A DNA stretch of 47,960 nucleotides from a bacterium. Its GTDB lineage: Bacteria > Patescibacteriota > Patescibacteriia > Buchananbacterales > GWA2-38-13. Where the stretch lies: NCBI GenBank assembly GCA_030648715.1, contig JAUSGZ010000045.1:1-47960 (forward strand), written 5' to 3'. A program made the position numbers and the translations under genes. The notes under the pieces are model-generated. The model had not been told where the DNA came from. It saw nothing but the letters and a program-made list of their open reading frames with translations, and searched no databases. Numbering within the stretch: the first letter of the stretch is position 1; every line of letters starts with the position of its first letter. Positions 2,654-17,036 of this stretch are shown piece by piece.

Positions 2654-2660
2654 TCCGGAC

Positions 2661-2729
2661 CGTCATTCCCGCGAAAGCGGGAATCTAGAAATCGGATTAC
2701 TGGATTCCCTCTGCGGCTCGGGAATGACG
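2661..2729. repeat. Inverted doublet of CGTC-type REP-like palindromes (empty copy 1)
   Basis: cgtcattcccgcgaaagcgggaatctag (2661-2688) and ctggattccctctgcggctcgggaatgacg (2700-2729). Confidence 0.85.
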
Positions 2730-2786
2730 ACTGGTTACGACTCTTGGTACCTTTTCTAAAAAGGTGCCAAAGTCTATACTTAGCCC

Positions 2787-2990
2787 ATGCAATTGGCCAA
2801 AACAAACGACGCTCGCTGGGCATTTATCGGCGTCTACCTCATCCTGTTGGTAGTGAGTTTCTCGCGCATTGACCGCAACTCGCACTCGGTTTCCGATACC
2901 CTGATCAATTTCGTGCCGCTGGCGGCGCTGCTCACGCTCGCGTTCGCCCTCGCCATGATTTCATCCCGCGGCAAGCAACCCCCCGCTTAG
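2787..2990 (+). CDS. Small two-TM membrane protein
   Basis: 67 aa with two hydrophobic segments; TATACT 6 nt before ATG; abuts next gene. Confidence 0.6.
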   Translation: MQLAKTNDARWAFIGVYLILLVVSFSRIDRNSHSVSDTLINFVPLAALLTLAFALAMISSRGKQPPA

Positions 2991-2993
2991 GGT

Positions 2994-3755
2994 ATGCAAT
3001 TCAAATTCCTCCACTGCAACATCTGGAACGGCGGCAAGCTGATAGATAACCTTATCGCGTTCCTGCAGAAGGAAAAGCCGGACGTGTTGGCGATGCAAGA
3101 GGTCTATAACGGCCACGACCCGACCATGGAACGGCGCTTCCGCTCCATCGAGGTGCTGCAGGAAGCGACCGGCTTGCGCCACTTCGCGTTCGCTCCGGCG
3201 TTCTCCGAAGACCTGGCGAGCTTCTCGGTGCAGAACGGCAACGCCGTCCTGTCGCGTTTCCCCGTGATGAGGCACGAGCATTGGTTCTATGACCGCCCGT
3301 ACGACCCGCATTTTGTGGAAGGTTCAAGCAGCAACCTGAAAAACCCGTACAACCTGCAGCATGTCGTTCTGGATCTGCCGGGACGCAACTTGCACGTCTA
3401 TAATACGCACGGCATCTGGGGAAACCACGGCCGCGACACCGAACGGCGCCTGCATATGGCGAAGTTCATTCTGGAAAAAATGTCGGGTATAACACCGGCG
3501 GTGCTGTGCGGGGATTTCAACGTCAACGAAGGCACCCAGACTATCGCCAATTTGAGCGCCGCTTTGGTCAATGTGTTCGCGCCCGACCAACGAAAGAACA
3601 GCTTTAACCTCGACCACAAGGCGCCGGGAACGGGGTACGGCACCGCTGTTGTGGACTTCGTTTTCACCACGCCCGACGTGACCACACTCACTCACCGCCA
3701 GCCGGAGGACGACGTCACCGACCACCGTCCGCTGGTGTGCGAATTTACGATATAA
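2994..3755 (+). CDS. Endonuclease/exonuclease/phosphatase (EEP) family protein
   Basis: HCNI, PDVLAMQEV, GNAVLSRFP, NTH, LCGDFN, VDFVF, TDHRPL motifs. Confidence 0.92.
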   Translation: MQFKFLHCNIWNGGKLIDNLIAFLQKEKPDVLAMQEVYNGHDPTMERRFRSIEVLQEATGLRHFAFAPAFSEDLASFSVQNGNAVLSRFPVMRHEHWFYDRPYDPHFVEGSSSNLKNPYNLQHVVLDLPGRNLHVYNTHGIWGNHGRDTERRLHMAKFILEKMSGITPAVLCGDFNVNEGTQTIANLSAALVNVFAPDQRKNSFNLDHKAPGTGYGTAVVDFVFTTPDVTTLTHRQPEDDVTDHRPLVCEFTI

Positions 3756-3768
3756 CCTATTCCGCCCT

Positions 3769-4029
3769 ATGGATGAAGTGAAATTGCGCTGCCAAAGCTG
3801 CGGCATGCCGCTGGACCCGGGCTACTTCGGTACGAACGCCGACGCGACCCAGAACCGCGAGTGGTGTTTCCTCTGCTTCAAGCAGGGGGTGTTCACCAAA
3901 CCGGAAATGACGGTGGAGGAAATGCTGCAAATGTCCATCGACCACATGATGCGGCACCTGGGATTTGCGCGGGACAAGGCGGAGCAGATGGCCAAGGAGA
4001 TCATCCCCAATCTGAAGCGCTGGCAGTGA
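3769..4029 (+). CDS. Putative zinc-ribbon protein (Zn_ribbon_2-like)
   Basis: CQSCGMPL ... WCFLCFKQGVFT ... IPNLKRW pattern. Confidence 0.85.
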   Translation: MDEVKLRCQSCGMPLDPGYFGTNADATQNREWCFLCFKQGVFTKPEMTVEEMLQMSIDHMMRHLGFARDKAEQMAKEIIPNLKRWQ

Positions 4030-4032
4030 AGA

Positions 4033-4060
4033 TGTCACCCCCGCGTAGGCGGGGGTCCAG
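4033..4060. repeat. REP-like palindrome, left flank of GIY-YIG gene
   Basis: tgtcacccccgcgtaggcgggggtccag, same GTCA-stem-loop-stem-CCAG layout as 2661 and 16951. Confidence 0.8.
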
Positions 4061-4087
4061 TAACGCTACTTGGTCGCCCGTGGCCGA

Positions 4088-4375
4088 ATGAAATCATTCT
4101 ACGTCTACATCCTTGCCAGTAAGCGAAACGGAACGCTCTATATTGGCGTTACTGGTAACCTGGTGCGGCGGACCGCCGAACATAAAACCGGAGCCGTGGA
4201 CGGATTCTCAAAAAAATACAAAACCCATATGCTGGTCTACTACGAACAACACGATGATGTGCGTGATGCCATTCAGCGCGAAAAACAGTTAAAGAAATGG
4301 AACCGGGCTTGGAAAATAAGACTGATCGAGCAGGGTAACAAGCAGTGGCGAGACTTACACCCGGAGATTACTTAA
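4088..4375 (+). CDS. Stand-alone GIY-YIG nuclease
   Basis: FYVYILASKRNGTLYIGVTGNLVRR...H...AIQREKQLKKWNRAWKIRLIE; ATG at 4088. Confidence 0.93.
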   Translation: MKSFYVYILASKRNGTLYIGVTGNLVRRTAEHKTGAVDGFSKKYKTHMLVYYEQHDDVRDAIQREKQLKKWNRAWKIRLIEQGNKQWRDLHPEIT

Positions 4376-4393
4376 CTTTTCGGGTTAGAGTTA

Positions 4394-4423
4394 CTGGATT
4401 CCCTCCGCGGCTCGGGAATGACG
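4394..4423. repeat. REP-like palindrome, right flank of GIY-YIG gene (inverted)
   Basis: ctggattccctccgcggctcgggaatgacg, one mismatch from 2700-2729. Confidence 0.85.
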
Positions 4424-4500
4424 GTACCCAACACCAAAAAAGGAGGCGCCTGCTGATGTGGCAGACGCCTTTTCGGATGCGTTGGTCTATGGACTTGCCG

Positions 4501-5358
4501 CTAGACGCTGGCCAAGCCCGCCTTGATGAACGCGATGCCGCGCTCGTAGACGTCCTTGGGATCGTCGAAGAGCGGCCGCCAGATGCGGGTGGCCGCCGCC
4601 AGGTCAGGCAGCGCCTGCCCGAAGGCTTCGATGGTGACAAATCCCTGGTAGCCTGCGCGCCGCAGGGCGCGGAAGGTGTTGGCGAACCCCACGTGGCCCT
4701 GTCCCGGAATGCCGCGATCGTTCTCGCTGGCATGGAAATGGACCACTAAACTGGCCACCTTTTCCAGCGCCGCCACCGGATCGCGCTCCTCGATGTTGGC
4801 GTGGAACGTATCGTACATCATCCGCAGCCCGTCGTGTCCGACCAGGATGACCAGCGCCGCCGCCTGATCACACGTGTTCACCAGCCAGCACTCGAAGCGG
4901 TTGAGCGGCTCCACCGCCAGCGTCAGGTAGGGCGACGCCATCTCCGCGGCCTCGCGCAGCGTGTCCGCTGACCAGCGCAGACGGTCGGCACACTCCTCAG
5001 GGGTGGGTGAAGCCGACGGGAAAACTCCGAGCGCGGAGTGCAGCGGACCGCACAGCACCGTACTGCCGACCTTGACCGAGGTGGCAATAGCCCACTTCAG
5101 GTGTTCCAGGGCCTTGTCGCGCACGCCCTTGTCCGGACTGCAGGGGTCGGCGTCGGCCGTCGCGATGGCGACCGTGGTACGCGCCAGATCGAGCCGGTCG
5201 AGCTCGCCGCGCAGGCGCACGTAGTCTGCGCCGGTCTGCTCCACCAGGAGCGGGATCTCGACGCCATCGTAGCCGGCCTTTTTGATTCCCGCCAGCACCG
5301 GGAACTGTTGCTCGGTGACGGTGGCGCCAAAGAGCAGCATATTGAATCCGAGTTTCAT
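4501..5358 (-). CDS. Sugar-phosphate isomerase/epimerase, D-psicose/D-tagatose 3-epimerase family
   Basis: GYDGVEIP, VEPLNRFE, DTFHANIEE, HFHASENDRG, TIEAF metal-binding motifs; AGGAG SD before ATG at 5358; TTGACA-17-TACGGT promoter at about 5475-5447. Confidence 0.88.
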   Translation of the reverse strand: MKLGFNMLLFGATVTEQQFPVLAGIKKAGYDGVEIPLLVEQTGADYVRLRGELDRLDLARTTVAIATADADPCSPDKGVRDKALEHLKWAIATSVKVGSTVLCGPLHSALGVFPSASPTPEECADRLRWSADTLREAAEMASPYLTLAVEPLNRFECWLVNTCDQAAALVILVGHDGLRMMYDTFHANIEERDPVAALEKVASLVVHFHASENDRGIPGQGHVGFANTFRALRRAGYQGFVTIEAFGQALPDLAAATRIWRPLFDDPKDVYERGIAFIKAGLASV

Positions 5359-5555
5359 GCGGATTCTCCTTTCAAAGTTCTGACCTTGGGTTGAAATCGG
5401 GGCCAACCCATCCCCGTACGCACGGAAAACGATTTTCCGTTGGCTTACCGTAGCCAAAATCCTTTTTTTTGTCAATACATTGCTCTTGACAACACGGTCG
5501 CGCCCTGCTATGGTTTGAGGGTTAACGTGCCTAACCATACTAGCGACCACCATCT

Positions 5556-6332
5556 ATGTTTGGTATCCTCCGCCATCCGTCCGTTCGCTATGCCGCCGCG
5601 ACGCTAGCCATCGGAGCGTTCGCGATTGCTGCCGGCGCGACCCATTCGTGGGGTGGCTACCACTGGGCACGGCAAGCCAACCCGTTCACGCTGAAGCTTG
5701 GCGACAACGTTTCCAGCGCGTGGGATTCGTACCTGGACACGACCGCAGCTGATTGGAGCGCGTCGACCGTTCTGAACACGACGAAGGTTGCCGGCAGCAC
5801 GAACCCCAAGAACTGCCGCGCAGTCGCCGGCCGTGTAGAAGTCTGCAACAGCAAATATGGCAACAACGGATGGCTGGGAATGGCCAGCATCTGGGCCAGC
5901 GGCACCCACATCACGCAAGGTACCGTCAAGCTGAACGACACCTACTACAACACGCCGAAATACAACACTCCCGCGTGGCGGAACCTCGTAATGTGTCAGG
6001 AAGTCGGCCACACGCTCGGCCTCGACCACCAGGACGAGGACTTCGAGAACGCGGCGCTGGGCACCTGCATGGATTACTCGAGCGACCCGACACTGAACCA
6101 GCATCCCAATCAGCACGACTACGACATGTTGGAGGAGATTTACGCGCACTTGGACACGACCACGACCATCGGGCAAACGGCCACCCGCGGGAACGCCGAC
6201 GTTGACCACAACGACCGCAGCACCTGGGGCAAAGAACTGCGCACGTCGTCCGACGGCCGCAAATCGCTGTACGCACGCGAGCTTGGCGGCGGCGAGAAGG
6301 TCTTCACGTTCGTCATTTGGGCCCAGGAGTAA
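5556..6332 (+). CDS. Secreted metzincin-like protein (variant QExxHxxGxxH)
   Basis: Signal peptide; MCQEVGHTLGLDH followed by GTCMDY Met-turn-like motif; TTGACA-17-TATGGT promoter upstream. Confidence 0.75.
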   Translation: MFGILRHPSVRYAAATLAIGAFAIAAGATHSWGGYHWARQANPFTLKLGDNVSSAWDSYLDTTAADWSASTVLNTTKVAGSTNPKNCRAVAGRVEVCNSKYGNNGWLGMASIWASGTHITQGTVKLNDTYYNTPKYNTPAWRNLVMCQEVGHTLGLDHQDEDFENAALGTCMDYSSDPTLNQHPNQHDYDMLEEIYAHLDTTTTIGQTATRGNADVDHNDRSTWGKELRTSSDGRKSLYARELGGGEKVFTFVIWAQE

Positions 6333-6351
6333 ACCCGACTACCCCGTAGTT

Positions 6352-6385
6352 AAAAACCGCTCCGGCACTCCCGGAGCGGTTTTTC
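6352..6385. terminator. Bidirectional intrinsic terminator
   Basis: aaaaaccgctccgg-cactc-ccggagcggttttt. Confidence 0.8.
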
Positions 6386-6416
6386 TTTGGTTCCAAATAA
6401 GCGATCCTCCGCAAAG

Positions 6417-6540
6417 CTCGGGGACAGGGGTTCGCCACCGCCGTTGGCGGGGTCCCGCCTTCCTCAACTTAGTCAAATTTGAAACGGCGGGAAACCCCGA
6501 TTCTTCCCGCCAACGGCGGGGCAAGTTAGACGATCCCCTA
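6417..6540 (-). pseudogene. Degenerate tandem copy of tRNA-Gln interrupted by palindromic inserts
   Basis: Minus strand: taggggatcgtctaac [20 nt] agaatcggggtt [58 nt] cgaacccctgtccccgag; the three retained blocks match the adjacent tRNA; anticodon arm is missing. Confidence 0.8.
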
Positions 6541-6579
6541 AATGCGTCAAGGTTTGTGTAAAGAAAATCCGCTCCAAAG

Positions 6580-6650
6580 CTCGGGGACAGGGATTCGAAC
6601 CCCGATTCTCAGGTTCAGAGCCTGATGTCCTGCCGTTAGACGATCCCCGA
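6580..6650 (-). tRNA. tRNA-Gln (anticodon CTG), no encoded CCA
   Basis: TCGGGGA acceptor stem, TCAGG-CTCTGAA-CCTGA anticodon arm, GGTTCGAATCC T-arm, 71 nt. Confidence 0.96.
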
Positions 6651-6669
6651 GCTTTGGAGCGGATAATTT

Positions 6670-6914
6670 CTAGTTGTCTACGAGTAGTTCTTTTAAAGCT
6701 GCTCCGCTGTGCCAACTTTTCATTTTTTCTCCCTTCTCCTGGCGTCGATAATTGTTGGATATTGTTCGGTGTAAACGATGCGCCATGGTCGGCCATTTTT
6801 TGTTGTGCGAACGGCACCTGCATTATGTCGCGCAAGTCGTTCGGTAGGCTCAAGAGCGGTGAGGCCGATGTAGTGTTGGCGCTGTCGGTTTGTGAGCAGG
6901 TACACCCACGGCAT
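6670..6914 (-). pseudogene. GIY-YIG nuclease with a single-base frameshift in an A-run
   Basis: MPWVYLL...HYIGLT...RLARHNAG...TKNGRPWRIVYTE...ARRREKK*; one extra A in gagaaaaaatg restores MKSWHSGAALKELLVDN* ending at 6670. Confidence 0.8.
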
Positions 6915-7167
6915 GGTTTGTTGTGGAACGCTCATTAACGGGCTCTGCCGGTGACGCTATGAACATTGCAAAACGATGTAGCACAGCGTACGAAAAATTG
7001 CGGCAATTGTCAATAAAAAGAACCCCCGGCGTCTCTGAGCTTTCGCAGACCGGCGGGGTATGGACTACAGTGTGCAGCAGGACCGCGCAGTACAGACGAG
7101 CGGTTGCCAGCAGGCACCGCTCGGCCTACAATGATCATGGGGATTACCTGCCTAATGTATCCAAAGT

Positions 7168-7563
7168 ATGCGCGGCTATGTCGGAAATCTTGAAAAGGAA
7201 ACGTTGGAGAATACGACGTTCCGCACGGTGCTCTACACTGCCAAGCACTGTCAGTTGGTGATGATGAGCTTGCTGCCGGGCGAGGACATCGGCGAGGAAG
7301 TGCACAAGCTGGACCAGTTCATCCGCGTGGAACAAGGCATCGGCTCGGCGGTATTGGATGGCGTTGCCCACGCTTTGCAGGACGGCAGCGCGGTGATCAT
7401 CCCCGCCGGAACCCGCCACAACATCGTCAATACCTCGCCGCGCTCGGCGATGAAACTCTACACCGTCTACGCGCCGCCCGAACACCGCGACGGCGTGATC
7501 CACCAGACCAAGGCCGAAGCTGCGAAGGGCGAAGAGCACTACGACGGAAAAACCAGCGAGTGA
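7168..7563 (+). CDS. Cupin domain protein
   Basis: GEDIGEEVHKLDQFIRVEQG and IPAGTRHNIVN cupin motifs, KLYTVYAPPEH. Confidence 0.9.
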   Translation: MRGYVGNLEKETLENTTFRTVLYTAKHCQLVMMSLLPGEDIGEEVHKLDQFIRVEQGIGSAVLDGVAHALQDGSAVIIPAGTRHNIVNTSPRSAMKLYTVYAPPEHRDGVIHQTKAEAAKGEEHYDGKTSE

Positions 7564-7566
7564 ATA

Positions 7567-7602
7567 CAAAAAACTCCCCCGCATCCGCGAGGGAGTTTTT
7601 TT
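7567..7602. terminator. Bidirectional terminator, near-identical to 14977-15013
   Basis: caaaaaactcccccgcatccgcgagggagttttttt. Confidence 0.8.
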
Positions 7603-7616
7603 CTATCGGCTATTAC

Positions 7617-8081
7617 CTACCGCACCGGCGGGGTGCTGGTTGCGTTCTGCGGCAGGGGCCGCAATTGGATGGACTCGGCCGTAATGCTGCCGTCCTGCCC
7701 GGCCCGCCCAGTGACGACCACCGTTTTGCCGACCTCCAGGTCCGCCGTGTTGCCGTCCACGACCTTCCCGACGGAGGTCGCGCCGCCGTAAAAAACGATG
7801 ACGGTGCCGCCATCGCGCAGTTTCACCGTAATGCTGGTCACATCTTTTGCGATGATCTCGCCCGCCGCGCCGCCACCGGCGCGCCCGGCAAACACCCTCG
7901 CGCCGTCCGGTGCGCCCCCCATGTCGCGGAACCGTTGTTGCCGCTGCTCCGGCGTGAGATCACGCAACGCCGCGGCATTGAACTGCGGAGACTTCGAGGC
8001 CTGATATTTCATCCCCCCGAAGAACGCCCCGCTTCCGACCACTACCGCAACCACCGCCGCAATGACGAACGTGTTTTTCAT
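7617..8081 (-). CDS. Membrane-anchored OB-fold (DUF5666-like) protein
   Basis: N-terminal TM, GEIIAKD..SITVKLRDG, DLEVGKTVVVTG...DGSITAESIQ. Confidence 0.75.
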   Translation of the reverse strand: MKNTFVIAAVVAVVVGSGAFFGGMKYQASKSPQFNAAALRDLTPEQRQQRFRDMGGAPDGARVFAGRAGGGAAGEIIAKDVTSITVKLRDGGTVIVFYGGATSVGKVVDGNTADLEVGKTVVVTGRAGQDGSITAESIQLRPLPQNATSTPPVR

Positions 8082-8102
8082 AGACTCTGCCTGGTTAAAT
8101 GA

Positions 8103-9314
8103 TTATTCGTGACGCAATGCCTCGATAGGATTCAGTTTGGCCGCACGGCGTGCCGGATAATACCCGAACACGATGCCGATGGCTGCCGCCACGCCGAACG
8201 CCAACGCAACCGATTCCGGAGAAACCCGGGTCGCGATGGAGCCCAACTGCGACACCAGTCTGGCAATGACCCACCCCAATCCGATGCCGACCGCGCCGCC
8301 GATAAAGGTGAGCGCAATGGACTCGGCCAGGAACTGCGCCGCCACTTCGCGCCGCTTGGCGCCCAAGGCCATCCGCAGCCCGATCTCGCGCGTACGTTCG
8401 GTGACCGCCGTCAGCATCATGTTCATAATGCCGATACCGCCGACCACCAAGGAAATACCGGCGATGGAGGCGAGAAAAACGGTGAACGCGGTCATCACCT
8501 GCGACAGCGTACCGAGAATATCGGCCTGGGAAATGATGGAAAAATCAGGCGTGGCGACGCGATGCCGCATGGTCAGGAGCGCGGACGCCTCGGCCTGCAC
8601 GGATGCCATCAGGTCTTTCTGCTCGCTGGTCATCGCGATGGACGAGACGTAGTCGCTCCCGGCCAGCAACTTCTGCATGGAAGAAAGCGGCACGAACACC
8701 ATATCGTCGGGGTTGGAAAATCCCGAACCGCCCTTCGTTTGCAGCATCCCGATCACTTTGAAATTGATACGGTTGATGCGGATGGTCTTGCCGAGCGGAT
8801 CCACCCCCTCGCCGAACAGGTCCTCCGCCACGGTCGGGCCCAACACGGCTACCCGCCCCAAGCTGCGCTGGCTCTGCTCGGTGATGAACGTCCCGCTCGC
8901 CACGGCGACATTGTGCACCGCGGCGTACGCCGGCACCGCCCCCATGACGGTAGAATTCGTGTTGTTGCCGGTAGCCGTGATCTGGTAGCGTCGTGACACC
9001 TCCGGCGAAATGGCTGCCACCCCGGATACTTCCTTGAGCGCTTCGGCGTCATCGTTGGTCAGCGTTTGAGCCGAACCTCGGCCAGCGGAAACGAACGCCC
9101 GCCCGGCCTGCTGCACGCCAGGCAGCACGGTCAGCAGATTGGAGCCCAGACCTTCGATGTTGGACTCGATGGTGCTCTGGGTCCCGGCGCCGATCGAGAC
9201 CATCGCGATAACCGACGCGATGCCAATAACGATGCCGAGAATGGTCAAGCCCGAGCGCGCCTTGTTGGCCGTCAGCGCCGAATTCGTTTCCAGCAACAGA
9301 TCCCGCAATTTCAT
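8103..9314 (-). CDS. MacB/FtsX-family ABC transporter permease
   Basis: RSGLTILGIVIGIASV, GGIGIMNMML..VTERTREIGLRMALGA, YPARRAAKLNPIEALR. Confidence 0.95.
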   Translation of the reverse strand: MKLRDLLLETNSALTANKARSGLTILGIVIGIASVIAMVSIGAGTQSTIESNIEGLGSNLLTVLPGVQQAGRAFVSAGRGSAQTLTNDDAEALKEVSGVAAISPEVSRRYQITATGNNTNSTVMGAVPAYAAVHNVAVASGTFITEQSQRSLGRVAVLGPTVAEDLFGEGVDPLGKTIRINRINFKVIGMLQTKGGSGFSNPDDMVFVPLSSMQKLLAGSDYVSSIAMTSEQKDLMASVQAEASALLTMRHRVATPDFSIISQADILGTLSQVMTAFTVFLASIAGISLVVGGIGIMNMMLTAVTERTREIGLRMALGAKRREVAAQFLAESIALTFIGGAVGIGLGWVIARLVSQLGSIATRVSPESVALAFGVAAAIGIVFGYYPARRAAKLNPIEALRHE

Positions 9315-10024
9315 ATGCCGGCATTTCTTACGAGCCGCCGCTGCCGGACCTCGTGGTCATCGGCGATCTGCCCATCCTGGATGTGGATGATGCGACCGGC
9401 ATGTTCGGCCACGTAGGGTTCATGGGTAATGAGTACGATGGTGCGGCCCTGCTCCGAATGCAGGCGCTGGAAAGTAGCCAGCACCGCCTCGCCGGTGACG
9501 GAGTCCAGGTTGCCGGTCGGCTCATCCGCGAGCACCAGCGACGGATTGTTCACCAACGCCCGCGCGATGGCGACCCGCTGCATCATCCCGCCGGACAATT
9601 GGTTGGGCTTGTGCCGCCAGAACTGCTCGGGGAACGCCGACGCGCGCAACGCCGATTCCGCCAAGCCCTGTCGGGTACGAGCATCGTTCCCCGCGTACAC
9701 CAGCGGCAGCATGACGTTGCGCAGAACGCTCGCTCGCGGTAGCAGATTGAACGACTGGAACACAAAACCGATCTTGCGGTTACGGATGTCCGCCAGCTCG
9801 TCGTCGTCGAGTTGGGCTACGTCACGCCCATCCAGAAGGTAGCTGCCCTGGGTCGGCACATCCAGACAACCCAGGATATGCATCAGGGTGGACTTCCCAG
9901 AACCGGAGGGCCCCATAATGGCGACGAACTCGCCGTCGCGGATGGCAAACGACACCCGCTTCAGCACGTGGGTCTCGATCTCACCCGTGACGTAGGTTTT
10001 CACGATATCGCGGCACTCCATCAT
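9311..10024 (-). CDS. ABC transporter ATP-binding protein (MacB/LolD type)
   Basis: GPSGSGKST, LSGG, LADEPTGNLD, ITHE; overlaps permease start. Confidence 0.96.
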   Translation of the reverse strand: MMECRDIVKTYVTGEIETHVLKRVSFAIRDGEFVAIMGPSGSGKSTLMHILGCLDVPTQGSYLLDGRDVAQLDDDELADIRNRKIGFVFQSFNLLPRASVLRNVMLPLVYAGNDARTRQGLAESALRASAFPEQFWRHKPNQLSGGMMQRVAIARALVNNPSLVLADEPTGNLDSVTGEAVLATFQRLHSEQGRTIVLITHEPYVAEHAGRIIHIQDGQIADDHEVRQRRLVRNAGI

Positions 10025-10842
10025 AGCTCCAGAAACTTGCGGATGGCGGCAGCGATGCCCTCGGCGGCGATCTGTGGTTGGCGGATAAGGATACGCTGGT
10101 CGCGCGGACTGGTCAAAAATCCGGTCTCCATGATGGCAGCGACCGTCATGGGGTGGGTGGCATGTTCATAGCGGCGCCAGTTGAACGCGTAGTAGCCGGT
10201 CATATTACGGGTGATATTGGCGTCCTGCCGCATCCCGGTCACCCGGCCGTATTCCTCCTCCAACGCGGCGACCAGGGCAGCGGCGCGACCGGTATAGTCG
10301 CGGCGCGGCGCCGCGGCCTTGAAACCTGAAACGTCCGGATCGGCGCTGCCATCCGCGTGAATGGCGACCACGACGTCCGACCAATACGACGGCGGGATCG
10401 TTGCCGGCAGGATCTCCACCGTAATGCCGTCCGCTTCCAGCAGCGTTTTCGTCGCTTCCGCAATGGCAAGGTTCACCTGCCACTCGGCCTTGGCGCCGCC
10501 GGATGTGCCGCCGCCGCGTTCGCGTAATCGCCGTAGCTCATCCGGCAAGTCGGCAGTTTTCCAGTGCCCCACCTGTAAGGCAACTTTCCACGGGCCCTCG
10601 GGACGGCGCCAACCGCTCAGGTCGGGCATCGGCCGAAAGCGCCGTCCGAAATAATTTTGCGGACTGGACTGCTCGACCTCCTGCACGTCCTCGAATTCAA
10701 CCTCCTGCTCCAATGAAACCACCGGCGACTGTGGCCACTGCGGGCCGCTCGTGTGGCGAGCGCCACTGCCGCGCGCAAAAATGAGGAGGGCTGCGGCGGC
10801 AGCAACCGACAGGACCAGGGCAATAACCGGCAGCTTGTGCAT
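10021..10842 (-). CDS. N-acetylmuramoyl-L-alanine amidase (Amidase_3-like)
   Basis: N-terminal TM; VALQVGH, AEWQVNL, AIHADG, IMETGFLTS motifs. Confidence 0.8.
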   Translation of the reverse strand: MHKLPVIALVLSVAAAAALLIFARGSGARHTSGPQWPQSPVVSLEQEVEFEDVQEVEQSSPQNYFGRRFRPMPDLSGWRRPEGPWKVALQVGHWKTADLPDELRRLRERGGGTSGGAKAEWQVNLAIAEATKTLLEADGITVEILPATIPPSYWSDVVVAIHADGSADPDVSGFKAAAPRRDYTGRAAALVAALEEEYGRVTGMRQDANITRNMTGYYAFNWRRYEHATHPMTVAAIMETGFLTSPRDQRILIRQPQIAAEGIAAAIRKFLEL

Positions 10843-10857
10843 AGGCGTGGCTACCGA

Positions 10858-12642
10858 TCAACGCGAACCGCCCCCGCCGCCAGTCGGCAATCCTGGGATA
10901 CGGAAGCCTCCGCTTGCATTTTGTGTCTGTGCCGTACCTGCCGACGGTACCGAGCCGGTAATAACGCGATCGCCTTCCTCCAGACCGCTGACGATCTCGG
11001 TGGATTCATCATTGACTAACCCGACCTCCACGGCCTGATGCCGGAGCGGCAACGCGAGTTGAACGCTGGTCAAGCTTCCGATGGTTGCTGCCTCCTGCGC
11101 AGCAGGCATTTCCACGTAATTGCTACTGCCCTGATTTTTCACCGCCGCGTTAGGCGCGAGCAGCACATCCACCTTGGTGGCCGTGATGATATTGACCGAA
11201 ACGCTCATGCCCGGCTTGATGCGGGAGTCCTGCGCGTCAAAGGTAACCTTCACCGCGTAGGAAACCACGCCCTGCGAAACGGCGCCGAGCGTGTCGATCT
11301 CGGCCACCACGCCGGTCAGGGATAATCCCTCGACCGCGTCGAACGTCAAAATGGCTTTCTGGCCGACCCGCACTGCGGCGACGTCCACCTCGTTGAGCGT
11401 GATCTCGGCCAGCTGCTGCGGCGATATCAGGGTCACGGCTACCGTACCCGAGGAGACGGCTTCACCCCGCTTGATGTTCATCTCGGCAACCACGCCGTCA
11501 ATGGGAGCGCGCAAGGTGTAGTCCGGCAGCTGTTCGCGCGCGTCCTGCAGCGCGACTTCGCGCTGGCGCACCGCCAGCTCCTGGGTCTGCAGGTCCAGCG
11601 GGTCGGTGCCCGCCTTCAGATCAGCAAGCTGTGCGGTCCGCTCGACGATAGTCCGTTCCGCGGCGGTGATGGCTTCTTTTTCAGATTGGACGCTGTTACG
11701 GATGGACAGCAGGCTTAACAGATGGGAATTGGTCGTACCAGTGTGGGCGTTGAGGCTGTTGAGGTGTGTCGTGCTCAAGGTTTGCGGCCTGGCCCGGCGT
11801 TCGGCCAGCGTATCCACGTAGAACTGGATAAGATTGGCCGCGCTCTTCACCGCCTCGGCGACGCCTTTGACGGTCACGTAGGTGTCGTCAATGAGCGCTT
11901 CTATCTCGGCCCGTTCGGAAAAACGGCTGGCCGCCTTATAGGTGCTGAAATTCTTATCATAGGCGGCACGGGCGGTCTGGTAAGCCGCGTCGGCGGCATC
12001 GCGGTACTGGAACACTTTTTCGTCGTAGGCTTTGATGGCGTTGACGTAGTAGTCCAGGTTCCACTGACTGCCGTCCAGCGTGTTGTCGTAGAGGATGTTG
12101 TTGAGGCTGGTCATCAGGTCGGGCAGATCCAAAAATGCGTCCGCGACGACATTGAACCCGTCTTCATAGGCTTTGGTGAGATCGTCCCGGGCCTGCTGTT
12201 TGGAATTTTCAGCCGTCAGCAGCGCATGTTCGGCCTGCAGCAGGGAAAGCGCATCCGCCGGACGCCGCAATTTTTCCAGCGACAATTCCGCCGATGCCAG
12301 GCTGGCCTCGGCGTCCCGCACCGCCTTCAGGGCGTCCCCCGCATCCAACTGGGCGATGACCGCGCCGGACTTGACGGTCTGGCCTGCAACGACCTGCACA
12401 CTGACCACATCGCCGGCAGCCTTGGGTTTCACCTCCACGAGATTCGCGGCTGATACCTGGCCGCTGCCGGAAACCGTCACGTTCAGTGTCCCGCGCTCCA
12501 CCGTTCCCAGCAGGTAACGCGCGGCAGCGGCCGGAGTCCGCCATCTCCGGTAGGCCCATACGCCCGAGCCGGTGGCAAGCAGCACGAGCGCGATGAGGAG
12601 GAACTTGCGCCGCGCGAGCGCCTTGGTGAACGTATGTTGCAT
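10858..12642 (-). CDS. HlyD/MacA-family membrane fusion (adaptor) protein with long coiled coil
   Basis: VSGSGQV, lipoyl halves (VVAGQTVKSG; LRAPIDGVV), LNEVDVAAVRVGQ, IKPGMS, EIVSGLEEGD. Confidence 0.92.
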   Translation of the reverse strand: MQHTFTKALARRKFLLIALVLLATGSGVWAYRRWRTPAAAARYLLGTVERGTLNVTVSGSGQVSAANLVEVKPKAAGDVVSVQVVAGQTVKSGAVIAQLDAGDALKAVRDAEASLASAELSLEKLRRPADALSLLQAEHALLTAENSKQQARDDLTKAYEDGFNVVADAFLDLPDLMTSLNNILYDNTLDGSQWNLDYYVNAIKAYDEKVFQYRDAADAAYQTARAAYDKNFSTYKAASRFSERAEIEALIDDTYVTVKGVAEAVKSAANLIQFYVDTLAERRARPQTLSTTHLNSLNAHTGTTNSHLLSLLSIRNSVQSEKEAITAAERTIVERTAQLADLKAGTDPLDLQTQELAVRQREVALQDAREQLPDYTLRAPIDGVVAEMNIKRGEAVSSGTVAVTLISPQQLAEITLNEVDVAAVRVGQKAILTFDAVEGLSLTGVVAEIDTLGAVSQGVVSYAVKVTFDAQDSRIKPGMSVSVNIITATKVDVLLAPNAAVKNQGSSNYVEMPAAQEAATIGSLTSVQLALPLRHQAVEVGLVNDESTEIVSGLEEGDRVITGSVPSAGTAQTQNASGGFRIPGLPTGGGGGSR

Positions 12643-12650
12643 AGTCGGCG

Positions 12651-13151
12651 TTATCTGGGCAGCGCACGCTCGAACGGCGACGGCCCCGGTTGCCGCATCA
12701 TTTGGCGCGGCGGCATGACCCGGATGACCTTGGCCTCGATCTGCCCGCTGCTGTTGGGTTCGCCGACCACCACCACGTCGTCGTCCACCTTCAGGTCGGA
12801 AATGGCGACGGTATCGCGAAAACGCTTGATGATAGTCTGTGCATTCACCAGCACGACCTTCTCCGCATCATCGGGGCTGGCCACCACCAACGTAGCGCCA
12901 TCGATCTTGACAATACGGCCAAAAGCCCCGGACGCCTCCATAAAATCCTGGCCTGAAAATTCCCGCAGAAAACCGCCGCGAGGACCGCCGAAATTCTTGT
13001 GGTAACTTTCGCCCCAGCGGTAGGAGAACGTCGCTTTCCGGTAGCCGACCGCCTTGCCCGCCGCGAACCCAACGACGAGCGCCAGCAGCAGCGAGAGAAC
13101 GAAACTGCCGATCTTGAAGCCCTTGGATTGCACCGCCTTGTTCAGGTCCAT
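12651..13151 (-). CDS. Membrane-anchored OB-fold (DUF5666-like) protein
   Basis: TM, GRIVKIDG, DLKVDDDVVVVGEPNSSGQIEAKVIRV; similar C-terminal domain to 7617..8081. Confidence 0.75.
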   Translation of the reverse strand: MDLNKAVQSKGFKIGSFVLSLLLALVVGFAAGKAVGYRKATFSYRWGESYHKNFGGPRGGFLREFSGQDFMEASGAFGRIVKIDGATLVVASPDDAEKVVLVNAQTIIKRFRDTVAISDLKVDDDVVVVGEPNSSGQIEAKVIRVMPPRQMMRQPGPSPFERALPR

Positions 13152-13152
13152 G

Positions 13153-13563
13153 CTATGCGTGGGTTAATTTCAAATTCCGCATCCGGGCAAGGTCGCGCAA
13201 CGCCGCACGAAGCGACCGCAGGCCGGTGAACGCCGCTGAAAGAAGCAGCAGCAGACCGAATGTCGGCACCGACTCCAGGAGCGCTGCGGCAAAGTCCTGC
13301 CAATACGCCGCCAATACTTCCGCGTCGGCTGCCGCCGCGGACAAAAACTCAAAAAAGCCGCTGCGCGCGGCATCGACAGCGACCCAGCGGAACGAAACAA
13401 TAAGCGCCACAAGCGACAACGCGTTCACTGCGATGGCAGAGGCCAGTTGCGTGATCACTCGCCGCCGCTCCGCAACACGCAGGGCGCTAAGAACCGCGCC
13501 CTGAAGTTCAACCGGCGGAATGGCCGGCGGCAGCTTGCGAAAAAGGGGAACATTCAGGTCCAT
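13153..13563 (-). CDS. Two-TM membrane protein, possible anti-sigma factor
   Basis: Likely start MDLNVPLFRKLP at 13563; short cytoplasmic N-terminus plus TM helices, downstream of ECF sigma. Anti-sigma role is inference from position. Confidence 0.6.
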   Translation of the reverse strand: MDLNVPLFRKLPPAIPPVELQGAVLSALRVAERRRVITQLASAIAVNALSLVALIVSFRWVAVDAARSGFFEFLSAAAADAEVLAAYWQDFAAALLESVPTFGLLLLLSAAFTGLRSLRAALRDLARMRNLKLTHA

Positions 13564-13772
13564 ACCCCGTCGTACAACGGTCAAATGCGTAATAATTTTT
13601 CCTGTTACCCCGACGCTTCGTTGTACAGCGGGGCATATTGGTATATACGCAAAAGTTCGTTTTTTGGTGCATCGAACGGCTGCAGTATTAAAACCCCCGT
13701 TCGAAAAAACCCGTCCGACCGAATAAAAATATAAAGAAAGAGCAGCGTCGCAAAACGTAATTCGGATGCCGA

Positions 13773-14336
13773 TCAACCGTTCTTTTCCAGCAACCCACGC
13801 AGCTTTTGCACGGCACGGCGGTGGCGGCTCTTGGCCGTGGAAAGCGGCTGCCCCAATACCTGGCCGATCTCTTCGAACGTAAACTCCTCCTGGTAGTGCA
13901 GGAGCAGCACGGTGCGCGAATCGGGATCCAGTTGCTCCAGGGCCGCTGATAAACGCTGTGCCGCGTCAGCACGGTCCATCTGGTCGGGCGGCAACAACGC
14001 GGGGTCGACGACTTCGGCTCCCGGGTCACCTTCCTCCTCCCCCGCCGCCAGCGGCAACGGGCTGCCCTTCTTACGCCGCAGCAGGTCGTAGGCCGCATTG
14101 CGGCCGATGCGGAACAGCCAGGTTTTAAAACGACGTCGCTCGTCGAAACGACGCAGCTGGCGCCATGCCTTCAGCCAGGTTTCCTGCGCGAGATCTTGAG
14201 CGTCGCGCTCGTTGCCGACCAGCCGAAATAGCCATCCGTACAGAGGTGGCAGCAAACGCCGGACCAGCGCGTCGAATGCCGCGCGGTCGCCGCGACGGTA
14301 GTCGACCACCAATTGTTCATCCGTGCGCTCATCCAT
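13773..14336 (-). CDS. ECF RNA polymerase sigma factor
   Basis: TDEQLV, DAQDLAQETWLKAW, FKTWLFRIGRN, TFEEIGQVLG..LSTAKSRHRRA (regions 2 and 4). Confidence 0.95.
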   Translation of the reverse strand: MDERTDEQLVVDYRRGDRAAFDALVRRLLPPLYGWLFRLVGNERDAQDLAQETWLKAWRQLRRFDERRRFKTWLFRIGRNAAYDLLRRKKGSPLPLAAGEEEGDPGAEVVDPALLPPDQMDRADAAQRLSAALEQLDPDSRTVLLLHYQEEFTFEEIGQVLGQPLSTAKSRHRRAVQKLRGLLEKNG

Positions 14337-14464
14337 GGTTCCCGCATTCAACGGCCGCAGTATGGTGATGGTAGGCGCGAATGCTTCCTGCGTCAAATGG
14401 TCTTGTGTTACCATTATGTTGAAAGTTCGTACGTTGTTTTATCATTCATAATCGCAACCACGCT

Positions 14465-14971
14465 ATGCGGCAACGCAGTTCCGTTGCTCTGGCCGCAGTG
14501 GCGGCAATGGCTGTTATCCTTGCCGGCTGCACGCCGAGTCAGACCCAAACGCCGGTTGAAACCCCGACGCCGACCCCCGAGACGACGGCCGGGGCGTCGG
14601 CGGGCGCCAAGGTCGGTCCGAACGCGATCTATGCGGCCGACCAGAAGCCCGGCACCCAACTGACCGTCGGCATGGTTTCGCTGGCAGCGGCCGGCTACGT
14701 CGTCATCCACGCCGATAACGAAGGCAAGCCCGGACCGATCCTGGGCCAAAGCGCCTTGTTGCCCGCCGGCGCGAGCAGCAATGTCGTCATCACGCTCCCA
14801 CAGGCGGTCGCCGACGGGGCGCAGCTGCACGCCATGCCGCACCGCGACGACGGCGACTCGGTATTCAATGCCGCCAAAGACGCGCCGGTCAAAGACACGC
14901 TCGGGAACGTCATCTCGATGATGTTTGCGATCGACGCCCAGGCCGTAGCAGCGCCGCCGGTCCAATTCTAG
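14465..14971 (+). CDS. Lipoprotein with C-terminal beta-rich domain
   Basis: LAGC lipobox; GYVVIHAD...G.ILGQS, AMPHRDDGD motif. Confidence 0.8.
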   Translation: MRQRSSVALAAVAAMAVILAGCTPSQTQTPVETPTPTPETTAGASAGAKVGPNAIYAADQKPGTQLTVGMVSLAAAGYVVIHADNEGKPGPILGQSALLPAGASSNVVITLPQAVADGAQLHAMPHRDDGDSVFNAAKDAPVKDTLGNVISMMFAIDAQAVAAPPVQF

Positions 14972-14976
14972 GCCGC

Positions 14977-15013
14977 CAAAAAACTCCCCCGCATTCGCGA
15001 GGGGAGTTTTTTT
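14977..15013. terminator. Bidirectional terminator, near-identical to 7567-7602
   Basis: caaaaaactcccccgcattcgcgaggggagttttttt. Confidence 0.8.
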
Positions 15014-15206
15014 ATGGCAGATGGAACACGTCCTCAATGGCGCGCCGTTTCAGCGCGCGAGTTATGGCGTACGCCAGGCCAAGCGACGGATTGTACCTTC
15101 CCTGCTCCAGAGAAATGATGGTTTGCCGGGTCACGCCGGCCGAGATAGCCAGTTGCTCCTGCGTCAACCCAAGTTCGCGCCGAAGCTCACTGATGCTGGA
15201 CTTCAT
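15012..15206 (-). CDS. XRE-family HTH transcriptional regulator
   Basis: [28 protein letters not shown]...IEDVF. Confidence 0.93.
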
Positions 15207-15215
15207 TGCTGTTAC

Positions 15216-15644
15216 TTAGTTGCGGCGTTCGAGGTAGAGGTTCGTGAACGCCTTGGCCGCCACGCCGCCGACCAGCGCCGCAATGATGACCGGGTCGATC
15301 TGCACCAGGCCGCGTACGATCCCGGCGGCGACCTGGTAGCCGACCCCGGCGGCCAGCACCGCGACCATGGCCCAGACGGCGTTCCGCTCGGCCAAGGCTT
15401 CATGCAGGCGTTCACGTTCATCGCGCGGCATGCGCACCATGATATCCGCCAGATCAACGGTGATGAGCGCACCCCAGACGAGCAGCAACGTAAGACGGGC
15501 GTTCGCCGCCACGCCGGGGAGCGACTGGATGATGAACATCGGCGCGATGACCACGGCCAAATACACCCAGCCTTGCCAGGTTTTCGGGGTCAGCCCCCAG
15601 CCGCCGTACTTCCGCCGTTGAAACCACGCGGGATGACCGAACAT
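15216..15644 (-). CDS. Four-TM membrane protein (DUF2178-like DERE motif)
   Basis: WFQRRKYGGWGLTPKTWQGW, RDERE, hydrophobic helices; paired with XRE regulator. Confidence 0.75.
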   Translation of the reverse strand: MFGHPAWFQRRKYGGWGLTPKTWQGWVYLAVVIAPMFIIQSLPGVAANARLTLLLVWGALITVDLADIMVRMPRDERERLHEALAERNAVWAMVAVLAAGVGYQVAAGIVRGLVQIDPVIIAALVGGVAAKAFTNLYLERRN

Positions 15645-15746
15645 ACGCGGAAAATGAAGAATTAAGTATGTAAAAAATATATTACATCCGCGAATTTCCG
15701 TCAAGTGGATAACCATGGACCGCGATGGTACAATGCGGGCAATACC

Positions 15747-16907
15747 ATGCGCGCAAACAAAAAGACATTCCACCTCATCTACCTGTTGAACTTTCTCCTG
15801 GCCCTGGCCTGGGCGCTGCCCGCCTACATTGAATCCGCCTACCTACAAGCGACCGCCGGCAGCCGCGCGGTTGCCGTTTTCCTCTCGGCCGCTACCCTGG
15901 TCACCGCGGTGGTGGTCTTTTTTTATCCGCGCCTGATACGCCGCGTCAGCAACTACCGGGCGATGGTGCCCGTGCTGCTCGCCAACTTCGTTCTGCTTTC
16001 CGCCCTGGCGTTCGCGACGCACGCCGGTACGATATTCTTCGTCTTTATCGCCTACTACGCCACGGGGACGCTGCTGGGCATCAACATCGATGTTTTTTTG
16101 GAGGACATTTCGGATGACGAGCACACCGGCCGCATCCGAACCAACCTCCTGATGGTCGCCAACATCAGCTGGGTGCTGGCGCCGCTGCTGATGGGCCTGC
16201 TCGCGGACGGCGAGCGCTACCGGCTGGTGTTCATGGCCGCCGCCACCGCGCTCGTGCCCGCCCTGCTGCTGCTCATGCTGCAACGGCGTTCGATGCGCGA
16301 CCGATTCGCGTACCGGAGCCGCCACTTCCACCAGCTGCTGGCCGCGGTGTGGCGCGATCCCAACCTGGTCAAGATATTCACTCTGGCGCTGGTGCTACGG
16401 TTTTTTTACTTCATCATGGTGCTCTACATCCCGTTACACCTCCACAATGAGCTCGGGTTTTCTTGGGGCACGATCGGCTGGATACTGACGGTGATGCTGC
16501 TGCCCTTCTTGCTGCTGCAGCTGCCCGCCGGCCGCATCGCCGACCGGTTCCTCGGCGAAAAGGAGATCATGGTAGCCGGCCTGCTCACGATGGTAGTGTT
16601 CACCGGGCTCATTTTTTTCACCCGCGCCACCAGCCCGGTCGTGTGGGCCGCGGTTCTCTTTATGACCCGCGTGGGGGCGGCGCTGGTGGAGGCGATGCAG
16701 GAGGTCTACTTTTTCAAGCACGTCAACCGCCGCGATATCGACCTGATCAACCTCTTCCGCGACCTGGGGCCGGTGGGCTGGCTTGGCGCCTCGCTGTTCT
16801 CACTGGCAGTACTTTCGTTCTTCCCCATCCCCTACCTGTTCCTGTTCTTGGCCGTCATCCTCATCGCTGCCTTGCGCCCGGCGCTCACGTTGGTGGATAC
16901 GAAGTGA
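15747..16907 (+). CDS. MFS transporter
   Basis: About 12 hydrophobic segments, GRIADRFLGEKE loop motif. Confidence 0.88.
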   Translation: MRANKKTFHLIYLLNFLLALAWALPAYIESAYLQATAGSRAVAVFLSAATLVTAVVVFFYPRLIRRVSNYRAMVPVLLANFVLLSALAFATHAGTIFFVFIAYYATGTLLGINIDVFLEDISDDEHTGRIRTNLLMVANISWVLAPLLMGLLADGERYRLVFMAAATALVPALLLLMLQRRSMRDRFAYRSRHFHQLLAAVWRDPNLVKIFTLALVLRFFYFIMVLYIPLHLHNELGFSWGTIGWILTVMLLPFLLLQLPAGRIADRFLGEKEIMVAGLLTMVVFTGLIFFTRATSPVVWAAVLFMTRVGAALVEAMQEVYFFKHVNRRDIDLINLFRDLGPVGWLGASLFSLAVLSFFPIPYLFLFLAVILIAALRPALTLVDTK

Positions 16908-16950
16908 TCGCCACCTTTCTAGGAAAGGTGGCGCCAAAGTCGCGCCCGGA

Positions 16951-17036
16951 TGTCATTCCCGAGCCTCGGAGGGAATCCAGTAAATCGGTAAAACGGCCTC
17001 GGGTTACTGGATCCCGGGTCTGGGCCCGGGATGACG
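16951..17036. repeat. Inverted doublet of REP-like palindromes (empty copy 2)
   Basis: tgtcattcccgagcctcggagggaatccag (16951-16980) and ctggatcccgggtctgggcccgggatgacg (17007-17036). Confidence 0.85.

Follow-up and report, generated by a model that had tools for sequence, protein, structure and literature searches.

A GIY-YIG nuclease gene enclosed by inverted palindromes in a Patescibacteria genome, a probable member of the published Ssn/NTS system

The bacterial contig JAUSGZ010000045.1 (47,960 nucleotides, referred to in its entirety as the window) carries a short GIY-YIG nuclease gene at positions 4088-4375 that is enclosed by two inverted palindromes, together with two further inverted pairs of related palindromes that enclose no gene and are here called empty doublets. 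By homology, by the match of the repeats and by their layout, this unit and its palindromes most probably belong to the Ssn/NTS system, which has already been published (Chenal et al., Nat Commun 2025;16:2388, PMC11893778); we place the probability of this assignment at about 0.85. The original prediction, made from the raw sequence, suggested that a minimal GIY-YIG nuclease, and not a RAYT transposase of the HUH type, may be tied to these palindromes. It had thereby found anew a system published in 2025, which validates the reading and removes most of its novelty. The window is contig C36 of the source genome (G000), a 97.5%-complete assembly of 1.26 Mb with a GC (guanine plus cytosine) content of 61%, whose DnaX has named relatives in the Patescibacteria only.

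In the main text of the Ssn paper, the Neisseria Transformation Sequence (NTS), CGTCATTCCCGCGMAVGCGGGAATCYRG, is described as an oriented extension of the dRS3 palindrome (ATTCCC-N8-GGGAAT), which forms its palindromic core. The gene ssnA encodes a single-domain GIY-YIG protein of 94 amino acids (aa) whose family is defined by cd10448 (GIY-YIG_unchar_3), and NTS-like hairpins, there named SRM, lie close to the gene in 71% of ssnA homologs and in 42% flank it on either side. SsnA binds the NTS hairpin solely as single-stranded DNA (ssDNA) and in one orientation, and cuts it a few nucleotides upstream; ssDNA-specific binding and cleavage have been shown for four homologs, namely SsnA and three further proteins, one of them from Wolbachia. 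Binding depends most on the C just after the palindrome and cutting on the three bases before it, and cleavage by SsnA is abolished by the substitutions Y6A, Y17A and E64A. With SsnA of N. meningitidis, transformation by NTS-bearing DNA is about five-fold lower, and the role demonstrated for the enzyme is the restriction of incoming ssDNA during transformation. The same text likens the NTS-ssnA-NTS arrangement to an insertion sequence (IS), to IS200/IS605 and to repetitive extragenic palindromic (REP) and BIME elements, and proposes domestication; mobility is not shown there, and the spread of repeats driven by the nuclease appears as a hypothesis only (PMC11893778).

The literature found on SsnA together with GIY-YIG consists of the Ssn paper and one unrelated review. 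A search for GIY-YIG with repetitive extragenic palindromic repeats found no paper, and with REPIN it found papers on restriction enzymes only; the words REPIN and doublet are absent from the main text of PMC11893778.

The repeats and the gene of the window

With the pattern GTCAYYCC-N(8-16)-GGRRTCYAG, six repeats are recognized in the window, at 2662-2688 (+), 2700-2728 (-), 4034-4060 (+), 4394-4422 (-), 16952-16980 (+) and 17007-17035 (-), against a mean of 0.00 matches in dinucleotide-preserving shuffles (n=100). They form the three inverted pairs that the original prediction had described, and in all three the copies stand tail-to-tail, with the CCAG ends pointing inward and the GTCA ends outward. 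As had also been claimed, the two empty doublets hold 11 bp and 26 bp between their halves, and the pair at 4033-4060 and 4394-4423 encloses the GIY-YIG gene alone, the only gene between 4061 and 4393 being the frame 4070/4088-4375. The features are as follows.

2661..2688, + strand: NTS hairpin, left half of empty doublet 1; exact match to the published NTS consensus CGTCATTCCCGCGMAVGCGGGAATCYRG; 8-bp stem, -10 kcal/mol, z -2.87
2700..2729, - strand: NTS-like repeat of the GAGCC-loop class, right half of empty doublet 1; 6-bp stem; missed by the SRM pattern
4033..4060, + strand: NTS hairpin, left bound of the ssnA unit, GTCA end outward; 8-bp stem, -10.7 kcal/mol, z -3.94; fits the SRM pattern
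4088..4375, + strand: ssnA-type gene for a probable 95-aa single-domain GIY-YIG nuclease; PF01541, E 1.2e-16
4394..4423, - strand: NTS-like repeat, right bound of the ssnA unit, GTCA end outward; GAGCC-loop class, weak hairpin
16951..16980, + strand: NTS-like repeat, left half of empty doublet 2; matches the repeat pattern; GAGCC-loop class
17007..17036, - strand: NTS hairpin, right half of empty doublet 2, beyond the 26-bp gap; 8-bp stem, -8.6 kcal/mol, z -3.06; fits the SRM pattern

The inner flanks of the gene-bearing pair, tccagtaac (4056-4064) and gttactgga (4391-4399), are complementary, as had been noticed from the sequence, and represent a conserved 3' extension of the repeat, CCAG-TAAC. 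The copies at 2700, 4394 and 16952, for which 1-3 differences had been stated, differ from each other at 1-2 positions. These three copies possess a stem of only 6 bp and fold as DNA with -3.6 kcal/mol (z -0.83 to +0.33, as in shuffled sequence); the other three (2661, 4033 and 17007) fold with -8.6 to -10.7 kcal/mol (z -2.9 to -3.9). The published SRM pattern fits three of the six copies. An Rfam search of positions 2500-7500 assigned the hairpins to no family and returned tRNA-Gln and sub-threshold noise only.

Within the 101-aa frame, residues 10-83 form the GIY-YIG domain, and alignment with relatives of 94-101 aa places the start of the gene at the ATG at 4088, which yields a protein of 95 aa. 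The flanking hairpins are separated from this gene by 28 bp on the upstream and 19 bp on the downstream side. The protein stops directly after the catalytic domain, at residue 95, and has no added DNA-binding domain. More than 8000 relatives are found, and 28 of them, taken from several phyla and aligned, are 64-71% identical to it. Residues Y7, Y18, R28, H32 and E65 are invariant among the 29 aligned sequences, and Y7, Y18 and E65 lie one residue away from Y6, Y17 and E64 of the Neisseria protein, an offset from which their correspondence is deduced. A tblastn search against the chromosome of N. gonorrhoeae (used as reference; the assayed protein is that of N. meningitidis) gives 60% identity over residues 6-90 with E 4e-28, within the tblastn limit of E < 1e-10 by which homology is defined in the Ssn paper (PMC11893778). 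It is thus very likely that the gene encodes an SsnA-type GIY-YIG endonuclease, with the palindromes as its putative cognate NTS/SRM sites.

The gene is compositionally foreign. Its GC content of 46.9% lies within the lowest 2.8% of windows taken across the genome, and its GC content at third codon positions (GC3) is 56%, compared with 58-65% GC and 73-84% GC3 in the neighbouring genes. Among the matches listed, the closest relatives belong to other phyla (71% identity, Calditrichota), and the best match from the same genus is 56% identical. A phage collection holds no match to the 95-aa protein at E <= 1e-15, and in a plasmid collection 31 records match, most of which are large replicons and mislabelled chromosomes.

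The repeats across the source genome

A search of the whole genome, as the original prediction had proposed, yields 42 copies with the strict pattern and none with a reversed control pattern. A curated set was built from a search that tolerated up to one mismatch in each half and set the minimum stem at 6 bp, which gave 47 copies; evident false positives (C5:16006, C49:13708, C54:5589 and C72:6730) were dropped and C10:10343, a strict-pattern match with a shorter uninterrupted stem, was restored, leaving about 44 copies, half of which (22 of 44) are arranged in tail-to-tail doublets. The published SRM pattern gives 26 matches in this genome (7.35 +/- 2.2 in 20 shuffles), and our own pattern was preferred to it, as the SRM pattern finds only 18 of the 44 copies together with seven probable chance matches.

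The 44 copies comprise 33 distinct sequences, and 29 of the 44 are 29 nt long. The stems covary, with T-A in 18 and C-G in 13 of the 33 distinct copies at position 3, and with C-G in 21 and G-C in 11 at position 6. Three hairpin classes can be recognized, a CGCGAAAGCG loop-stem, a GGCCCCAGAGCC type and a GAGCCGCGGAG type, two of which fall outside the published SRM pattern; owing to loops that are longer or different, over half of the copies escape this pattern. Generic hairpin cores of the form A-YY-CC number 125 in the genome, and the oriented GTC...C flanks are found on exactly 44 of them, on one strand only in each of the 44 copies, which are divided evenly between the top and the bottom strand (22 each).

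The original prediction had further seen in the window a candidate autonomous unit with non-autonomous companions, and this layout is real on the scale of the genome. Of 18 repeat pairs that lie close together, 11 are (+,-) doublets, separated by 3-26 bp, and share the tail-to-tail geometry of the gene-bearing unit (binomial p 0.0012). In alignment the doublets stand out as discrete units that have a polar spacer, CCAG-[T/A]AA-CCGAT ... TTT-CTGG, in common, while their flanks are unrelated. They cannot form a single long hairpin of the REPIN type, and fold only as two small hairpins, because all 11 join two different stem or loop variants.

Some variation in the loops was observed apart from these classes. 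Both hairpin loops of one doublet (G000 C20:5090-5260, compared with G002 C5:173134-173227, locus L114, G002 being a genome of the same genus) contain insertions of 21-24 nt. A loop insert consisting of GGAGTTTACCC followed by a small hairpin occurs six times in G000, twice inside NTS loops, and NTS variants with long loops and nested hairpins flank ssnA in other genomes as well (L100, L105, L081:1790-2070).

Linkage of the gene to hairpins in other genomes

Of 599 candidate stretches in a genome collection, 535 encode a relative of the protein. The 80 best loci, which come from many phyla and encode proteins 58-71% identical to it, were surveyed with 1.5 kb of flanking sequence for hairpins of the form TCAYYCY-loop-RGRRTYYA with a stem of at least 6 bp. 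The survey bears on the enrichment of GIY-YIG genes inside doublets, for which a test across genomes had been suggested with the original prediction. In 64 of 80 loci a hairpin stands no more than 100 bp from the gene, and in 66 no more than 150 bp, which is consistent with the 71% published for ssnA homologs. Hairpins are present on both sides of the gene in 41 loci, and in 33 the layout is that of the window (+ upstream, - downstream); of the copies closest to the gene, the upstream one is on the + strand in 46 of 55 loci and the downstream one on the - strand in 41 of 50. There are 7.5 hairpins per kb at a distance of 0-100 bp from the gene and 0.07 per kb at 1000-1500 bp, and in 12 of the 80 loci no hairpin is found by the TCAYYCY pattern. 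Among 11 ssnA loci taken from relatives, a loosened pattern detects a hairpin in six, and in four of the other five a variant GTCAT hairpin can be recognized by eye only. The linkage of gene and hairpin is general across phyla.

These counts bear on a view in which the palindromes are ordinary REP repeats, integration sites of a Y1 (RAYT/IS200) or IS110 enzyme, or terminators, and the GIY-YIG gene is a bystander. REP/REPIN repeats are normally tied to RAYT (Y1 HUH) transposases, the hairpins of G000 are intergenic, and dRS3 reportedly serves as the integration site for an IS110-type enzyme in Neisseria. Neither PF01797 (Y1_Tnp/RAYT) nor PF01548 (IS110) has a match in the 97.5%-complete G000, however, though PF01797 matches in six of 14 control genomes and PF01548 in control genomes too; the linkage in 64 of 80 loci and the 100-fold drop of density over 1.5 kb are incompatible with a bystander; and the asymmetric, one-stranded flanks of all 44 copies would be needless for a terminator. 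The bystander view is highly improbable and close to refuted. The original prediction had itself named as grounds for giving it up a RAYT gene beside the repeats, a lack of association with GIY-YIG genes, or a lack of cleavage; no RAYT gene was found in G000, the association is strong, and cleavage has been shown for homologs (PMC11893778).

Several observations weigh against membership in the Ssn/NTS system. No NCBIfam model scores above its cut-off with the 95-aa protein (TIGR01453 reaches 17.1 bits against a cut-off of 56), and the sole relative in the Protein Data Bank (PDB) is the distant 1ywl (E 0.0026). Half of the window copies, among them the right-hand bound of the gene, form only weak hairpins of 6 bp that the published SRM pattern does not cover. 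The association between gene and repeats at the level of whole genomes is loose: among 31 relatives searched with the strict pattern, an ssnA-like gene (E <= 1e-25) is present in eight of 11 with at least five repeats and in nine of 20 with fewer. The congener G002 (same genus, 8 contigs, 99% complete) keeps 14 repeats and has no ssnA at E <= 1e-10, so that repeats evidently persist without the enzyme. Finally, the ssnA region of N. gonorrhoeae has NTS copies on both sides of the gene, but these are oriented oppositely to those of the window (- upstream, + downstream).

Regarding the N. gonorrhoeae locus (L118; NZ_CP119142.1:1881319-1882373, 390-675), the record is filed as a plasmid, yet its length of 2.17 Mb marks it as a chromosome. 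The annotation shows no gene at the matching ssnA-like frame (from base 401), and the closest ATG upstream of it lies in another frame; spurious frames through the NTS repeats read VIPAKAGIQ and GFPPARE.

Probable mode of action

The assignment to the Ssn/NTS system carries with it a mode of action, in which the protein of the window would in all likelihood be a site-specific ssDNA nickase for NTS hairpins. Binding, cleavage and an effect on transformation are in print for homologs (PMC11893778), and the same action is inferred for the window protein. Judged by its homology with the four SsnA proteins that have been characterised, the enzyme is expected to ignore duplex DNA and RNA and to bind a single-stranded hairpin in one orientation, recognising it by the stem sequence and by the C that directly follows the palindrome on the 3' side; in the presence of Mg2+ it would nick the strand a few nucleotides 5' of GTC. 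In a unit or doublet, one hairpin lies on each strand and the GTCA ends point outward. Either strand, once single-stranded, should therefore present one cleavable site, at its outer 5' edge. The most likely role is the cutting of NTS-bearing ssDNA that arises in DNA uptake, replication or repair, and such cutting would modulate recombination near the repeats. ComEC, the DNA-uptake channel, is encoded in G000, and incoming DNA is therefore a plausible substrate, as it is in Neisseria.

Filled and empty sites, and the question of mobility

In G002 the genes at the syntenic site are 81-90% identical to those of the window and the whole NTS-ssnA-NTS unit is absent, window positions 4033-4424 and 11 further bases being replaced by about 45 unrelated bases. 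Among assembled contigs of groundwater sequencing runs, those of the likely source run show the filled form only, and those of two other runs show an ssnA-less join of 4032 to 4436/4437 with 42-43 other letters between, a form that is G002-like and may not be independent of G002. Doublet 1 (2661..2729) is absent from its syntenic site in G002; doublet 2 (16951..17036) is kept there with 97.7% identity over 129 bp, compared with 88% and 80% for the genes that flank it, and this suggests that the repeat is under selection. At six G000-specific sites (window 2662, window 4034, C22:240, C43:24880, C60:862 and C60:1836), the intergenic DNA of G002 is replaced or different beyond the hairpins, and neither a clean hairpin-bounded empty site nor a target duplication was found among them; C22:1874 lies in a region rearranged relative to G002. 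The comparison of filled and empty sites in relatives, which had been put forward as a check, thus shows gain and loss of units, and the hairpin-bounded empty sites and target duplications of an insertion are missing from the sites compared.

Other genomes provide further comparisons. In all three within-genome pairs of paralogous units, from other metagenome-assembled genomes, homology extends on the left to 2-8 nt outside GTCA and on the right to just past TGAC. One site in Methylomonas holds ssnA and doublets in three genomes and a bare doublet in a fourth, and in Methylomonas genomes that are 95% identical the indels lie between short direct repeats (CTATTC, CGTCCCCGT) inside hairpin arrays, which fits slippage or recombination between repeats rather than transposition.

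Two observations concern the surroundings of these sites. Behind ssnA in Methylomonas subterranea (L081:1400-2210) there are tandem units made up of a doublet and about 45 bp resembling the end of the upstream gene; in a comparison of this locus with G043 and G047, 95%-identical genomes are set apart by indels of 111 and 77 bp that have short direct repeats at their limits, and NTS arrays seem to be prone to slippage or unequal recombination. In G002 (C3:251476-251779; L117:1476-1779), about 300 bp of a different repeat replace window positions 2657-2993, a block that holds doublet 1 and a 67-aa frame (2787-2990) without a Pfam match; the replacing repeat occurs in G000 at C61:30949-31137, C68:1501-1665 and C5:22773-22900.

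It is possible, though we would not expect it, that NTS-ssnA-NTS is a selfish mobile element, with the empty doublets as gene-less derivatives and with copying started by SsnA nicks at the outer edges. The shared geometry of doublets and gene unit (11 of 18 pairs, p 0.0012) and the alignment of doublets as discrete polar units would be explained in this way, and the limits of homology in the three paralog pairs approximate the positions where SsnA reportedly cuts. The unit is present in G000 and absent from the syntenic site in G002 and from the contigs of two more runs; the genome with ssnA has 42 repeats and the one without has 14; the GC3 of the gene is 56%, against 73-84% nearby, and its closest listed relatives are in other phyla; and the Methylomonas site occurs both filled and as an empty doublet. 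Against this stand the lack of clean empty sites and target duplications at the six sites compared with G002, and the Methylomonas indels, which fit slippage or recombination. The copies are also old and diverged (33 distinct among 44, with different variants paired in 11 of 11 doublets), only one cleavable site is available per strand, and the conservation of the shared doublet (97.7%, compared with 80-88% for the flanking genes) points to selection rather than the drift of a parasite. GIY-YIG enzymes, moreover, hydrolyse DNA and are not known to rejoin it. The related proposal that the doublets are non-autonomous copies of the unit, multiplied and turned over by SsnA nicking in a REPIN/RAYT-like system built around a hydrolytic ssDNA nuclease, is equally tentative. 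Of the original suggestion that the nuclease spreads or maintains the repeats, the tie between nuclease and repeats has held, and the spreading is not supported: it is a hypothesis in the main text of PMC11893778, and the comparisons made here show no hairpin-bounded empty site or target duplication.

Alternatively, ssnA could be a selfish gene of the homing type that enters, or is exchanged between, the spacers of pre-existing doublets by nick-induced recombination, in which case the doublets would not derive from the gene. A common geometry of unit and doublets would be expected, and ssnA does lie exactly in the position of a spacer (CCAG-TAAC ... GTTA-CTGG); the Methylomonas site has either a bare doublet or ssnA with doublets, and G002 keeps doublets without the gene. 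However, where SsnA has been characterised, the cut lies beyond the 5' side of the hairpin and not in the spacer (PMC11893778), and no pair of alleles was found that differs by the gene alone. The homology between paralogs also includes the hairpins, although conserved hairpins would give the same result. We consider such homing unlikely.

If the mobile-element reading were true, G000 and G002 would be a natural before/after pair, with 42 copies beside ssnA and 14 without it. In any event they are a same-genus pair with and without the gene, in which it can be asked whether the nuclease spreads, maintains or merely uses the repeats.

Relation to known systems

The likeness to the Ssn/NTS system of Neisseria lies in the single-domain GIY-YIG protein of 94-95 aa with conserved Tyr, Tyr and Glu (60% identity to the N. 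gonorrhoeae ssnA region), in the same hairpin consensus with one exact match, in the NTS-gene-NTS layout and in the many further intergenic copies. Compared with the main text of PMC11893778, the locus adds an Ssn/NTS pair in a streamlined, ComEC-bearing Patescibacteria genome. This host genome of 1.26 Mb has about 44 copies, as opposed to hundreds in pathogenic Neisseria. More than half of the copies in G000 have loops that the published SRM pattern misses, and the two hairpin classes outside that pattern, of the three recognized, are candidate new specificities for ssDNA-cutting tools. The doublet architecture is a further addition: half of the copies stand tail-to-tail in polar units with the geometry of the gene-bearing unit, and the copies flanking the gene point outward, the reverse of the N. 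gonorrhoeae locus.

Similar arrangements are known under other names. The intergenic mosaic elements (NIMEs) of Neisseria resemble the doublets of G000 in being short units with inverted dRS3 copies as their bounds, and dRS3 is the palindromic core of NTS; these elements were described as sites of recombination and phage integration before a protein partner was known, and the G000 copies add the oriented GTC...C flanks. REPIN/RAYT systems likewise combine short extragenic hairpins in inverted doublets, one hairpin-flanked protein gene and a protein that recognises hairpins in ssDNA. They differ in that G000 is without a Y1 transposase, its enzyme being a hydrolytic GIY-YIG protein without known strand transfer, and in that the doublet halves are unlike in 11 of 11 cases and form no long REPIN-type hairpin.

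IS200/IS605 elements have subterminal hairpins that are read in ssDNA and cleavage that is offset from the hairpin, a comparison drawn in PMC11893778. These elements cut both ends on one strand and rejoin them via a covalent tyrosine intermediate, whereas the unit of the window has a single cleavable site per strand and no TnpA, only the GIY-YIG gene lying between its hairpins. I-TevI and SegB of phage T4 share the GIY-YIG catalytic domain and are encoded by selfish-looking, patchily distributed genes, but they have an added DNA-binding domain and cut duplex DNA, whereas the window protein is a bare 95-aa domain from a family that, in the main text of the Ssn paper, acts on ssDNA only.

A second GIY-YIG subfamily beside tRNA genes

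Six other small GIY-YIG genes are present in G000 and constitute a separate subfamily with a GKVxSTK motif and a GC content of 45-56%; the two that were compared are 32-34% identical to the SsnA-type protein of the window, for which the figure among relatives with flanking hairpins is 58-71%. The six genes are located at window 6440-6930 (-), C18:480-900, C18:11600-12250, C54:100-600, C33:7380-7950 and C61:31330-31750. Five of the six genes are followed directly, on their own strand, by a tRNA gene (Ile, Val, Tyr, Ser or Gln), and the sixth itself follows tRNA-Asp. Among 20 loci from relatives, 13 have a same-strand tRNA gene at most 100 bp downstream and two more adjoin a tRNA gene on the other side; the rough chance expectation of such adjacency is about 0.2% per gene. 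The copy in the window (6717-6914) contains an in-frame TGA and adjoins tRNA-Gln (6580-6650). The G000 loci also hold partial tRNA copies that are interrupted by hairpin-bounded insertions in the D- or T-loop. This subfamily could be a homing element that targets tRNA genes, or an Ssn-like reader of tRNA-gene hairpins in ssDNA. For GIY-YIG genes adjacent to tRNA genes, SegB of phage T4 is the sole parallel among the literature matches listed.

Other features of the window

Positions 1-1100 of the window contain long stretches of ACNCCN repeats with a 12/18-nt period, which read as Thr and Pro for the most part in the long + frame 1-1962. They lie shortly before a sortase gene (1712-2653) and are probably the linker of a surface protein. 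Two 89%-identical sequences at 7567-7602 and 14977-15012, each with a hairpin between A6 and T6 (AAAAAACTCCCCCGCAT.CGCGAGGG(G)AGTTTTTT), look like bidirectional terminators that are unrelated to the NTS family.

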